DNA of 64,000 nucleotides from Dehalococcoidia bacterium (lineage in GTDB: Bacteria > Chloroflexota > Dehalococcoidia > Lucifugimonadales > Australimonadaceae), in assembly GCA_965261385.1 (NCBI GenBank), contig CBDHDB010000001.1, positions 161,145 through 225,144 on the forward strand, read 5' to 3'. Below are positions 9,456 through 48,932 of the stretch, piece after piece. Each line of letters opens with the position of its first letter. Positions within the stretch are counted from its first letter, which is position 1. The notes under the pieces are model-generated. The model saw nothing but the letters and a program-made list of their open reading frames with translations, was not told the origin of the DNA and ran no database searches. Position numbers and translations under genes: made by a program.

Positions 9456-12260
9456 CTATGACTCCTCGCCGTCCTCCGCAAAGTCGTCGTCAAGGTCCTG
9501 CTCATCGAGGGGCTCCAGCACGTCTCCCACGGCGGGAAGCTCCATCGCAAGCTGGGGAGAGGCGGAATTGCCGTTCGCGCCCGTGCCGTTCGCGCTAACC
9601 GCGCCGTTGGTCTTTGGCTGCGGGGCTGCGACCTCCGGCATCTGGTCGAAATCCGCAGGGGTGCGCTCGCGGAACGCGCTCATCGAGATGACCACGTCGT
9701 CACCGGAGAGCTTAGTCATCACCTGCACGCCCTGCGTGTTACGGCCTAGGCTGCGAATCTCCCCGATCGCCGTCCGATAGACCATCGCCTTGCGTGAGCC
9801 AACCATAATCTCCTCGACGTCGGGGCCGGTGACCACCGCCCCGGCGATGGGGCCAGTCTTGTCGGTGATCTTCATGGCGATGACGCCCTGCACGTTGCGG
9901 CCCGTCTTGCGGAAGTTGCCTACTGCCGTGCGCTTCCCGTAGCCGCGCTCACTCAGAATCATCATCTGGCCGCTGCCGAGGATGTACTCCGCCTTCTGAT
10001 CGCATCCCTCGATGTCGCAGGGCTCGAAACGCTCCTCCGGCGGAAGGTGCAGGGGCCCCTTCTTCTCCTCGCCGGGGTGCTCCTTGCGCCACTGCGCGTA
10101 GTGGGGCTGGCACATATGCCGCTCCTGCGGGGCCACGTCCATCGCGGCGACCTCGTCGTCGTCCGCCAGGCGGATGCCGCGTACGCCGCCGGCGCCTCGG
10201 GTCTGACGCTCCGTAACCTTATCGAGCTCGAAGCGTACTCCCTTGCCGTTCCGCGTAACGAGCACGGTGGTCATTCCATCGTCGGCCAGCCGGGCGGTCA
10301 GCAGGCTGTCGCCCTTCTCCAGGTCGAACGCCGCCAGGCCGTTGCTGCGGATGTTCTGGAACTGGTTGAGGTGCATCTTCTTCACCTCGCCCTTGCGCGT
10401 GGCCATGAAGATGGACAGGTCCGCCTTCGGGTCCGATATGGCGACGACCGCCGTCACGGTCTCTTCCGCCGGATTTATCGCTTCGATCAGGTTCTGGACG
10501 GGCGCCCCGCGCGTCTGCCGGGTCGCGTCCTGCCCGACCTCGAACACGCGCTTGCGGTACACGCGGCCCTTGTCCGTGAAAAATAGGAGCCAGTCGTGCG
10601 TATCGGCAACAATTAGCTGTTGGACTGCGTCGCCCTCACGTGTTTCCTGCCCGCGCACTCCCTTGCCGCCGCGGCGCTGGAGGCGATAGAGGGCGATGGG
10701 CAGACGCTTGACGTAGCCACGGTCGCTCAGGGTAAAGACCACGTCCGCGTGGGGGGTCAGTTCCTCGGGTGTCTGGTCCCGCGCCTCCTCGTCCGATATG
10801 GCGGTGCGGCGGGGCTCACCGAAGGCCTTGCGGAGCTCGGCGGTCTCCTCCTTAATAACTTGGAGAACACGACCTACGTTGGCCAGAAGCTCTTCGAGGT
10901 CGGCAATCTTCCGCATCAGCTCCTGGTACTCGTTCTCGATGCGCTCGCGTTCGAGTGCGGCCAGGCGGCGCAACTGCATCTCCAGGATGGCTTGCGCCTG
11001 GGGCTCGGTGAGGCCAAACTCCTGCGTCAGCGCATTCCGCGCGCCCTCGGCGTCCGCCGACGCGCGGATGAGGCGGATGACCTCGTCCAGATTGTCCAGC
11101 GCGACGCGCAGGCCTTCGAGGATGTGCGCTCGCTCGCGGGCCCTGGCCAAGTCGTACTCGGCGCGGCGGCGGATGACGTTCCGCCGGAACTCGATGAAGT
11201 GCTGAAGCGCGGAGCGCAGGCTGAGGACGCGGGGCTGGCCGTCGACGAGCGCCACCATGTTGACGTGGAAGGCGCTCTGCATGGTCGTGTGCTGGTACAG
11301 GTTGTTCAGCACCACGCTGGCCGCGGCGTTCCGTTGCAGCTCAATGACGACCCGCATCCCCTCACGGTCCGACTCGTCGCGGACTTCAGAGATGCCGTCG
11401 ATCTTCTTGTCCTTGGCGAGGTGGGCGATCTTCTCCACGAGAGAGGCCTTGTTGATCTGGTAAGGCAGCTCTGTGACGATGATGCGCTGGCGAGCGCCTT
11501 TTTCCATTTCCTCGAAAGAGGCCTTGGCGCGAACGACGATGCGCCCGTGCCCCGTGTGGCAGGCCTGCTCGATGCCCTCGCGTCCCATGATGGTCGCAGC
11601 GGTTGGGAAGTCGGGGCCCTGGACGAAGTTCATCAGCTCGTCGGCTGTGGCGTCCGGATTATCGATGAGGTAGGTGAGAGCGTCGCATACCTCGCGGAGG
11701 TTGTGCGGCGGGATGTTCGTGGCCATGCCTACGGCGATGCCGGACGCGCCGTTGACGAGAAGGGTCGGAACGCGCGAGGGAAGCACCGTTGGCTCGCGCT
11801 GGGAGCCGTCGTAGTTGTCGACGAAGTCAACGGTGTCGCGGTCGATGTCCTGGAGGAGCTGCTCGGCGATGGGAGCGAGCCTGGCCTCGGTGTAGCGCAT
11901 GGCAGCGGGCGGGTCGTCGTCGACGGAGCCGAAGTTGCCCTGGCCATCGACGAACCGATGGCGCATGGAGAATTCCTGGGCCATGCGGACGAGGGCATCA
12001 TAGACAGGCGAGTCGCCGTGGGGGTGGTATTTCCCGAGGACCTCGCCGACGACGGCGGCGCTCTTCTTATAGGAAGAGCCGGGACGGAGGCCCATGCCCT
12101 GCATGGCGTAGAGGATGCGCCGGTGTACTGGCTTGAGCCCGTCACGAACGTCGGGAAGCGCGCGGGCCACGATAACGCTCATCGCGTAGTCGAGGTACGC
12201 GCTGCGCATCTCTTCTTCGATTCGAACGAGCCTGACGTTGCCGGTGTTGCCCGTTACCAT
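9456..12260 (-). CDS. gyrA: DNA gyrase subunit A, with an extra Cys/His-rich insert in the C-terminal domain
   Basis: 934 aa. [10 protein letters not shown] active-site Tyr region, QRRGGKGV GyrA-box-like motif, repeated beta-pinwheel blades, acidic tail. Insert at aa ~711-765 (nt 9966-10130). Confidence 0.95.
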
Positions 12261-12365
12261 GCGGGTCCTTTCACGTTCATGCAGGGAGGCGGACTACCGG
12301 TGAACCCACTACATATGGTGGTCCGGAAATCGTCCTCTCCCAGAGATACCCTAAAATACCACCTG

Positions 12366-12394
12366 ATTATAGCGGATGCCCCTCTAATCCCCAA
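12366..12394 (-). promoter_or_regulatory. candidate sigma70-type promoter for gyrA
   Basis: Minus strand reads TTGGGG (12394-12389), 17 nt, TATAAT (12371-12366). About 105 nt upstream of the gyrA ATG. Confidence 0.4.
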
Positions 12395-12504
12395 TAGGAA
12401 AGAGGATCGTGCTCCGCTCTTTCACTCCTCTGTCTATCCCCATGGGAGATTTACCTGCAGATCCCCCCGACTGCGAAGCTTGCGCGACTCCCGGCCGCGA
12501 CGCA

Positions 12505-12778
12505 GGGCAAAGTCCCCGACTTTCGATGAGGTTACGAGTGAAAAGTCCCTGATTCTCGGTGAGGTTACGAGTAAAAAAAGTACCCGAAAATCGACGACAT
12601 TGAAGGGTTGACAGAGGGCGTTTTCGTGGCCGTGGCCTGCTTCCTAGACCTTGGAACTACTTCCTGACCGAGATTGTTTTCTTATTGGCATGCGCCCCGC
12701 CTCCTCTCTCAGTCCCCCGCACACGGGGGCGGAGGGAACGAGTGCGGCGCCGGTTGGCAATGGGCAAGTGTCACTGTG
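12505..12778 (-). repeat. composite element copy B (gene-less derivative, inverted orientation)
   Basis: On the minus strand: CACAGTGACACTTGCCC (12778-12762). A REP-b hairpin. CGCATG remnant of the rep 3' end. TCAGGAAGTAGTTCCAA (12667-12651), an identical 17-mer to 48851-48867. AGGAAGCAGGCCACGGCC (12645-12628). Two 23-25 bp direct repeats plus a terminal half repeat (12585-12505). Confidence 0.75.
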
Positions 12779-12831
12779 CATCGGCGAAGCGCCTGCGCTG
12801 GAATGACGGGGAGGCGCGGGGAGGGCTGCGA

Positions 12832-13067: not shown

Positions 13068-14738
<1,671 letters not shown>

Positions 14739-15032
14739 CTAGCTAACCTTCGCCAGGACGTCGGTTTCCCTCATGACCAGGAACTCTTCTCCGTCCTCCT
14801 CAAACTCCGTGCCGGCGAACTTCGAGTAGATGATGGTGTCCCCGACCACGACATCCATCACGGCCCGCGTGCCGTCGTCATTCACCTTGCCGGGTCCTAC
14901 GGCGATGACGCTCCCCTCTTGGGGGCGCTCCTTCGCGCTGTCCGGGATGTAAATCCCGCTCTTGGTCTGGGTCTCTTGCTCGACCGCCTTCACAACGATA
15001 CGGTCGCCCAGGGGCTGCAACTTTCGCGCCAC
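14739..15032 (-). CDS. groS: co-chaperonin GroES
   Basis: 97 aa. LQPLGDRIVVK...KSGIYIPDSAKE. AAGGAGG lies 6 nt upstream of the GTG start. Confidence 0.95.
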   Translation of the reverse strand: MARKLQPLGDRIVVKAVEQETQTKSGIYIPDSAKERPQEGSVIAVGPGKVNDDGTRAVMDVVVGDTIIYSKFAGTEFEEDGEEFLVMRETDVLAKVS

Positions 15033-30084: not shown

Positions 30085-30223
30085 ACCTTCCCTCTGTCGG
30101 GAGTATAACAGTGAACGGAGCGGAAGGCGGTTGGTGCGAGGGACAGCTTCGGCGCGTACAGCCTCCCGCTTGCATCACCCCTGCGGAGGTTCGCCCCCGC
30201 CCGCCACTGCGCAGTCCTCCCAC

Positions 30224-30460
30224 CACTGTGACACTTGCCCCTTACCCAAACCCTCTGCCGTGTTCTATAACTCGCCGCCGCTCATAGAGAGAGCCAATGC
30301 CGATTTGCGTGTTTTCACATTTAATTCGCGCTCTTGAACGCAGGAAGCAGGCCGTGGCCTGCTAAACAGCCCCGATCAAGAAGCCGAAGGTACCCCTTTC
30401 AGCGACACAAACCACCAAGGTTTACGAGTAAAAACCCCCATCAAGAAGTCGATTTGCTCC
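30224..30460 (+). repeat. composite element copy C (most diverged, gene-less)
   Basis: CACTGTGACACTTGCCCCTTACCC (30224-30247). AGGAAGCAGGCCGTGGCC (30342-30359). One inverted iteron-like unit GGTTTACGAGTAAAAACCCCC (30419-30439). Direct repeat CCC(G/C)ATCAAGAAG(C/T)CGA at 30371 and 30436. Confidence 0.65.
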
Positions 30461-44913: not shown

Positions 44914-45407
44914 CGCAGCCGGAGTCTAGCAAAGCGGAGCCTCAACCCCACAGGATGGAAAAGGGGGAGGGAGCGGGCTTTTCGGGAGCAAGTTGGCTTC
45001 TCAATGGGATTTTTACCCATAATGTTTGGTCCTCGTGTCGCCGGAGGGGCGCCTTCGGCTTCTTAAAGAGGGGTCCACAACGGAGTCGTCGTGGCCACCG
45101 ACCGGCGTGCTCTCATGCTGAACTCCGGCATGGCGTCAAAAGACGTGGTCGAGGTTCCTATCCGGGCCTGCAAGTGGACTATAACGAGGGGTTGACCTGC
45201 TCCGGCTTGAATTTGTCCGGCAGCACGGACCAGGACTACGCTTACTACCTTGACCACAACGGCAAGAAGCAAATCAGAAGCCGGGCCAGGCCGTTGTTCG
45301 AATGCGTGCTCCGGCAAATCCACGCCGCGGCCAACCCCGCCGGCGACTAACCGGGGAAGGCACACAGGGACGGCGAACCGGAAGAAACTACGCCGGAGGG
45401 AACAATC

Positions 45408-47291: not shown

Positions 47292-47393
47292 GCCGCCCCA
47301 CTCGCCAATCAACGCCCCCGTCCCACCAACCACCACTGTGACACTTGCCCCTTACCCCAACCCCCCTCCCCCACGTAAAATTAACGCCAGACA

Positions 47394-48830: not shown

Positions 48831-48932
48831 ATTACAGAACAAACATCAGTCAGGAAGTAGTTCCAATACCCAGGAAGCAGGCCACGGCCATAAAAACACG
48901 CCCCGCCAGCCCTGTTTTCGCATGTTTTTCCG

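Follow-up and report, generated by a model that had tools for sequence, protein, structure and literature searches.

The window is a 64,000-nucleotide stretch (C1:161145-225144) of an assembly of two contigs (1.34 and 2.89 Mb, 65% G+C). The host genome (G000) is that of a SAR202-type Dehalococcoidia bacterium, and the relatives that carry the family protein described below are MAGs labelled Dehalococcoidia, Chloroflexota or SAR202. Within the window, groES, groEL and gyrA follow one another on the minus strand. The spacer between groEL and gyrA, 807 bp in G000, holds copy B of a dispersed repeat family, and the ATG of gyrA lies at 12260. All copy B coordinates are read on the minus strand. The features of the locus are listed in the direction of gyrA transcription.

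14739-15032, minus strand: groES
13068-14684, minus strand: groEL
12779-12812, minus strand: left terminal inverted-repeat flank (CCCCGTC...GCGCTTCGCCGATGCA), degenerate, resembling the arm CCCCGTCTGCGAGACCTTTGCGTAAC..CGCGTCGCCGGCGCA
12762-12778, minus strand: left box CACAGTGACACTTGCCC, read from the sequence
12755-12760, minus strand: -35-like TTGCCA of copy B's own putative promoter, the partner -10 being gone
~12695-12734, minus strand: REP-b hairpin inside copy B, the same insertion being present in the G001 ortholog
12672-12696, minus strand: remnant of the 3' end and stop of the ATPase gene, GGCGCATGCCAATAAGAAAACAATC, aligning with the stop region of gene-bearing copies
12651-12667, minus strand: iteron-like 17-mer box TCAGGAAGTAGTTCCAA, 5' of the core
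12628-12645, minus strand: invariant core AGGAAGCAGGCCACGGCC, 18 bp, with 87 copies in the genome
12564-12586, minus strand: direct repeat 1, CGGGTACTTTTTTTACTCGTAAC
12531-12551, minus strand: direct repeat 2, CAGGGACTTTTCACTCGTAAC, 35 bp after repeat 1
12505-12518, minus strand: terminal half repeat CGGGGACTTTGCCC, 33 bp after repeat 2
12462-12504, minus strand: right tail GGGAGTCGCGCAAGCTTCGCAGTCGGGGGG, a degenerate right terminal inverted repeat matching GGGAGTTACGCAAAGGTCTCGCAGACGGGGGAG, which closes many sister copies
12389-12394 (-35) and 12366-12371 (-10), minus strand: predicted gyrA promoter TTGGGG-17-TATAAT, outside copy B
12261-12365, minus strand: gyrA leader, 105 nt, outside copy B
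9456-12260, minus strand: gyrA

The sequence-only reading had placed a box, a REP-b hairpin, a stop-region remnant, a 17-mer and direct repeats in copy B, and all of these were present as placed. The limits of 12505-12778 that it gave to the element were too narrow. Based on comparison with sister copies, and on the degenerate arms found at both sides, the true extent is approximately 12462-12812. In sister copies and the G005 ortholog, CCCCGTCTGCGAGACCTTTGCGTAAC..CGCGTCGCCGGCGCA forms the left arm, ahead of the left box; copy B keeps part of it. Behind the left box, the G001 ortholog of copy B exhibits TTGTCC-17-TACAAT and 75 bp that are absent in G000, corresponding to a deletion of approximately 75 bp, including the element's own -10, from the G000 copy. 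The REP-b family to which the hairpin belongs is scattered over the window. The gene remnant GGCGCATGCCAATAAGAAAACAATC is homologous to GCATGAAWTACAAAAACATCTCGG, the consensus of the stop-codon region in gene-bearing copies; it aligns with units D and F3 and with many gene-less copies, and its stop codon is mutated. The claim that the whole gene body had been deleted was correct in that only the last bases of the gene, the box, the core and the repeats are left, but the copy is a mosaic that also contains a REP insertion and a second deletion.

An identical match to the 17-mer TCAGGAAGTAGTTCCAA was found on the plus strand at 48850-48866, one position from the 48851-48867 first given for it; window shuffles gave an expectation of 0 matches. 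Genome-wide, five exact matches and 20 with at most two mismatches were counted, every one directly 5' of a family core. The possibility that the 17-mer was common outside these elements was thereby dismissed, and since it always adjoins a core it is a feature of the family and not a common word. The terminal half repeat CGGGGACTTTGCCC and the left box are alike at 10 of 13 positions. The repeat subfamily of copy B is shared with C2:2483403-2483589 (85% identical) and C2:1443992-1444190. Copy B is a decayed, gene-less, non-coding and chimeric member of the family.

The right half of copy B was considered as a structured RNA, and this was rejected as its folding z-score was +1.3, less stable than shuffled sequence. 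An Rfam scan of the groEL-gyrA spacer gave no match at the gathering score. Since neither an RNA structure nor an Rfam family was found, a role as double-stranded DNA that would bind protein fits best for this half. A scan for consensus promoters and terminators yielded no site within the element, and its sole terminator candidate lay in the gyrA promoter region. The same scan misses TTGGGG-17-TATAAT, as only three of the six -35 positions match.

As originally proposed, copy B points toward gyrA, with its repeat end facing the gene, and the TTGGGG-17-TATAAT candidate between the two is conserved among relatives whether or not they have the element. The full promoter is present in G001, G002 and G005 and in the element-free G004, and the TATAAT -10 is also conserved in the element-free G006; by this conservation it is identified as gyrA's own promoter. 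The promoter and leader together are 95.7, 92.0 and 90.6% identical to G000 in G001, G005 and G002, respectively. All six congeners have the invariant leader motif CCA[T/G]ATGTAGT[G/A]GG. A small hairpin is predicted for it, whose loop contains the start-stop pair AUGUAG; in the stem, one base pair has undergone a compensatory change from AU to GC. This hairpin may be a conserved leader control element that is independent of the repeat. As judged from these alignments, copy B neither supplies nor interrupts the gyrA promoter or leader.

The repeat family and its parent unit

The 87 genome copies of the core AGGAAGCAGGCCACGGCC comprise approximately 83 in gene-less units of roughly 300-450 bp and four gene-bearing units, D, F2, F3 and F4, of approximately 1.7 kb with one gene each. 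Unit D, which lies in the window, has two frameshifts and F3 is also frameshifted; the intact ORFs are those of F2 (463 aa) and F4 (499 aa). The order of parts in the parent unit is a left box with a sigma-70-like promoter, the ATPase gene, the iteron-like box, the core and three to four direct repeats spaced approximately three helical turns apart. In all four gene-bearing units the ATPase gene thus stands next to its own direct repeats, of which copy B keeps the repeats only. The core follows the stop codon nearly invariantly, even where the module proteins are only ~45% identical. The longest word that a box shares with its own copy's repeats averaged 7.9, compared to 6.26 +/- 0.18 for permuted copies. 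The box resembles its own copy's repeats more closely, and by this measure is an extra repeat-like site. Based on the same covariation between box and repeats, the winged-helix domain of the family protein most likely docks at the direct repeats.

The subfamilies have deletion junctions in common, which indicates that the gene-less units multiplied after the loss of the gene. A fifth family fragment in the window, at approximately 44975-45075 on the minus strand, lacks the core and has repeats of the inverted-repeat ('C-type') subfamily. At the corresponding site in two congeners (L016 and L017), a complete gene-bearing module is found in front of the same downstream gene. No description of this family in this lineage was found in the searchable literature.

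The family protein matched the AAA_25 domain profile (E = 2.6e-14), and Cys/His residues near its N-terminus are invariant. An alignment-based structure model (mean pLDDT 74) exhibited a RecA/KaiC/RadA-like core followed by a C-terminal PadR/Pex-like winged helix, with Foldseek matches at probabilities of 0.9-1.0 and weak E-values. The single-sequence prediction, at pLDDT 40, was not usable. The protein is read as a RecA-like, zinc-binding ATPase of the AAA_25 family that ends in a winged helix. More than 200 homologs were identified, named at most 'AAA family ATPase'. NCBIfam searches gave no match, PADLOC reported a weak Walker-region match alone, and both the RSF1010 RepA profile (E = 0.043) and the PDB sequence and profile searches were marginal. 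The terms 'rep' and 'iteron' had been chosen in the sequence-only reading for a gene that does adjoin direct repeats; the protein is, however, a RecA-like ATPase with a winged helix, and both labels are used here as analogies.

The left-box motif TGYGACAYTTGCCC occurred 83 times in the genome with at most one mismatch, compared to 2 in a reversed-genome control, and 180 times with at most two mismatches. TT comes after it at +15/16, and 122 of the 180 copies have TAnnnT at +38/39; from this spacing the left box is predicted to head a -35/-10 pair with a 17-18 bp spacer, that is, a promoter. The box stands at the head of several further repeat families too, such as those that go on as ...CCCTACCCTGTCTCCCATGCCCC... 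or ...CTACCATGGACTCCGACAG..., and within the window it can be seen at, for example, 2148-2165, 30220-30240 and 47334-47350. A reading as a classical IS was also considered; inverted pairs of the left box were searched for and none were found.

In the subfamily of copy B, many copies open with CCCCGTCTGCGAGACCTTTGCGTAAC...CGCGTCGCCGGCGCA and close with ...GGGAGTTACGCAAAGGTCTCGCAGACGGGG after the last half repeat. The right-arm motif was found 132 times, against 11 in the control. These terminal inverted arms, of approximately 29 bp, surround the copy B subfamily and are absent from D-type units; copy B has both, in degenerate form. Elements of 120 and 165-186 bp that contain no cargo have the same arms on either side (for example C1:569724-569909 and C2:272613-272797). 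Short elements framed by inverted CTCCCCCGTCTGCGAGACCTTTGCGTAAC are REPIN-like, and the outer part of the arm equals one stem of the REP-b hairpin.

No transposase linked to the family was found, the parent units encoding the ATPase only. A Y1/RAYT gene (PF01797) gave no match in G000, whose assembly is 93% complete; six of 14 control genomes were positive. Among the 12 loci returned by a composite flank query, and in three alignments of filled and unfilled sites among congeners, no clean empty site or target duplication was found, these sites being REP-rich and rearranged. No conserved target sequence was found upstream of the left box. The congener alignments did reveal the presence, the absence and further internal-deletion variants of copies. 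To the left of the copy at C1:112721, 250 bp at an ORF end (C1:111361-111611) occur approximately 25-40 times in G002 and G005, and are probably an insertion sequence abundant in those genomes.

The family shares features with several known systems. MITEs are non-autonomous deletion derivatives of bacterial mobile elements, and the Correia elements of Neisseria carry promoters and lie next to genes. Likewise, the family copies are short, non-coding, present in approximately 80 copies and internally deleted relatives of a few gene-bearing units; they carry promoter-like sequence upstream of genes, and some subfamilies, including that of copy B, have terminal inverted repeats of ~29 bp. Unlike a MITE, the family has a parent that encodes a RecA-like ATPase with a winged helix in place of a transposase. 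No target-site duplication was found at the three sites compared, D-type units have no inverted repeats, and the ends of the core unit are direct and not inverted repeats; the inverted arms are degenerate at copy B and are common to unrelated short elements. A second resemblance is to the Rep-ori modules of phage satellites and plasmids, such as the SaPI/PICI Rep with its iterons, the phage P4 alpha protein and RSF1010 RepA. In both, direct repeats that are specific to the subfamily and contain T-rich tracts come directly after a P-loop, RecA-like (AAA_25) ATPase whose tail binds DNA. The family unit differs in being chromosomal, in dozens of copies, and in having no integrase, primase domain or partner genes; its matches to RepA-type helicases are marginal in both sequence and fold, and copy B has no gene at all.

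REP and REPIN elements are mobilised by RAYT transposases (PMC8049555). The copy B subfamily is similarly framed by inverted REP-like CTCCCCCGTCTGCGAGACCTTTGCGTAAC, and its elements lie within REP clusters, but G000 has no Y1/RAYT gene, and a REPIN spacer is much smaller than the cargo here, which consists of box, core and repeats. Homologous sequences upstream of unrelated genes have been described as putative mobile promoters, in a paper that also mentions Correia elements (Nijveen, Matus-Garcia and van Passel 2012, PMC3575422). The family sequence likewise lies upstream of, and co-directional with, ~70 unrelated genes, with a promoter predicted from its -35/-10 architecture. It differs in having several defined parts, a parent that codes for a protein and an orientation rule that has been quantified, and at gyrA the host promoter is separate and intact.

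Orientation of the family towards gene starts

For the analysis of orientation, genes were called by a simple GC3-based ORF caller and not by standard annotation; the known genes around gyrA were recovered. No strong replication-strand bias of genes was seen in these genome-wide calls. Of the 87 cores, 81 were intergenic and were counted. The repeat end faced the start of the next gene in 70 of the 81 (p = 1.2e-11), compared to 36 of 81 for the upstream side, which exhibited no bias. Between tandem gene pairs, 39 copies were co-oriented and 5 anti-oriented (p = 1.4e-7), and divergent spacers outnumbered convergent ones by 31 to 6 (p = 4e-4). All 18 members of the inverted-repeat ('C-type') subfamily faced a gene start (p = 8e-6). 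The bias extended to other families that have only the left box in common, where 28 of 34 intergenic solo boxes were so oriented (p = 2e-4), and to gene-bearing modules in other genomes (15/19, p = 0.02, these being partly non-independent). The orientation rule is real: nearly every family copy is directed towards the start of the gene that follows it. In the window, three of four copies had been seen to face gene starts and coincidence had been offered as one reason; by the genome-wide count it is not coincidence.

The bias was found both in copies with a left box (49/55) and in those without (21/26). In 29 of the 70 co-oriented cases, less than ~60 bp separated the approximate end of the element from the predicted start. 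The genes downstream of copies are functionally diverse, many being metabolic. By eye, from N-terminal sequences, they include uvrB, uvrC, ku, a lexA-like gene, gyrA, katG, trxB, hrcA and copA. An excess of repair and stress genes was apparent by eye, and was judged not significant.

The trxB locus provides a second example of a filled spacer. The spacer is 66-68 bp in G001 and G002 and 622 bp in G000 (C1:254602-255225; loci L037-L040), where REP hairpins, an inverted-repeat element of 185 bp and a family fragment that lacks the left box occupy it. The insertions lie downstream of a conserved promoter-like block, and the sequence before the start codon, including the ribosome-binding site, differs. 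With the promoter-like block upstream of the insertion, trxB transcripts probably cross the inserted element.

Origin of copy B and of the orientation rule

The groEL-gyrA spacer was compared among congeners. In G001 an element lies at the same place and shares the REP-b insertion and the gene remnant of copy B. G005 also has an element at this place, of a third subfamily, and G002 has the left box only, followed by other repeats. In G004 and G006, which have small genomes without these repeats, the spacer is ~290 bp and contains no element. The sequence-only reading had asked for this comparison, which points to an insertion and not to conserved gyrA DNA, as judged from presence and absence among congeners and not from clean junctions. 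The alternative of native gyrA regulatory DNA that resembles the family by chance had in its favour the sequence at the same place in G001 and G005. It is refuted, with next to no probability left to it, by the dozens of homologous copies elsewhere in the genome, by the absence of the element from G004 and G006, and by the restriction of the 17-mer and core to family members.

The identity between G000 and G001, its closest congener, changed sharply along the spacer. It was 95.3% in the left half up to the core, 68.3% from the core to the last repeat and 56.6% from the tail to the gyrA promoter, followed by 95.7% across the promoter and leader. The break falls at the core. In the tail G001 and G005 agree with each other, and the right half of the G000 copy is 82-85% identical to other copies within G000. 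Both observations indicate that the G000 lineage has had ~230 bp replaced, most simply, and probably, by ectopic gene conversion. The presence of three subfamilies at one site in three congeners could instead reflect repeated, targeted insertion.

Based on these data, it is likely that copy B is an old non-autonomous copy, apparently inert and made chimeric by conversion, and that the orientation rule reflects selection on units that are read rightwards. A family copy would have entered the groEL-gyrA spacer upstream of the gyrA promoter in a common ancestor of at least three congeners. The G000 copy would then have lost its gene, gained a REP hairpin and lost its own -10, and from the core rightwards ~230 bp would have been overwritten by another subfamily, probably by ectopic gene conversion via the conserved core. 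Each unit would be read rightwards from its own promoter or by read-through, with no terminator, and copies would survive only where this transcription meets a co-directional gene. The equal bias of copies without a left box departs from a purely promoter-driven prediction, unless boxes were lost after insertion.

That independence from the left box would also fit a model in which units instead integrate preferentially, and in a fixed orientation, into 5' regions or promoters, for example beside left-box promoters or REP hairpins. Such oriented targeting could also account for three subfamilies behind the same left box at groEL-gyrA in three congeners with the left box alone in G002, for a G005 ortholog of another copy that consists of the left box and promoter remnant without the interior, and for the embedding of family copies in REP clusters. 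We consider it unlikely, while still giving it appreciable weight: the family has no associated recombinase or transposase, the parent encodes only the ATPase and Y1/RAYT is absent from the genome; neither a target-site duplication nor a conserved target was found upstream of the left box; and the G000/G001 break falls at the longest conserved stretch, as homology-driven conversion predicts. The rule might otherwise arise from the avoidance of replication or helicase conflicts, if the repeats were a unidirectional loading site for the ATPase and copies persisted only where the machinery moving rightwards from it was co-directional with the next gene. The downstream-only bias, the Rep-ori-like layout of gene then repeats and the place of the ATPase in the RepA/DnaB/RecA-like AAA_25 family are in keeping with this proposal, to which only slight probability is given. 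The helicase or replication activity that it calls for would be putative. The match to the RSF1010 RepA profile is marginal, and the families with only the left box in common show the same bias, which points to transcription instead.

At gyrA itself, copy B could be a working cis-module, acting as an operator or upstream activating array to which family ATPases bind in trans; or its transcription could generate supercoiling that affects the supercoiling-sensitive gyrA promoter. It is directed at gyrA, with the -35 of that gene 110-200 bp downstream, an element has been kept at this site in three congeners, and the whole family is associated with gene starts. The probability of this reading is nonetheless very low. 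The element's own promoter is broken in G000, and its repeats differ among congeners (68% to the closest) and so are not under conservation; on these two grounds a role of copy B in gyrA expression appears unsupported. The same gyrA promoter and leader are kept without the element in G002, G004 and G006, so the regulatory contribution once suggested for gyrA is not borne out, and family-wide the downstream genes are functionally diverse. More broadly, the gene-less copies could be dispersed cis modules, each a promoter with a docking array, at ~70 genes including gyrA, on which the family ATPase/winged-helix proteins would act in trans. In that case they would form a 'mobile regulon' that has no transposase, or sites where helicases load and so adjust transcription or supercoiling locally. 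We regard this as a speculative proposal of small probability.

On the favoured reading, that of an old copy made chimeric by conversion, copy B alone is a dead repeat with a history of ordinary decay, and gyrA keeps its own conserved promoter. Annotators should not take these units as gene-specific regulatory DNA. The family nevertheless accounts for a noticeable part of the intergenic DNA in this uncultured group of marine and sponge-associated Dehalococcoidia, where it multiplies without a recognisable transposase and obeys a strict orientation rule. The rule is new, as is the chimeric history. Should outward transcription underlie the rule, the units would rewire the expression of many housekeeping and stress genes, dozens in all; should targeting underlie it, an undescribed insertion mechanism would be at work.
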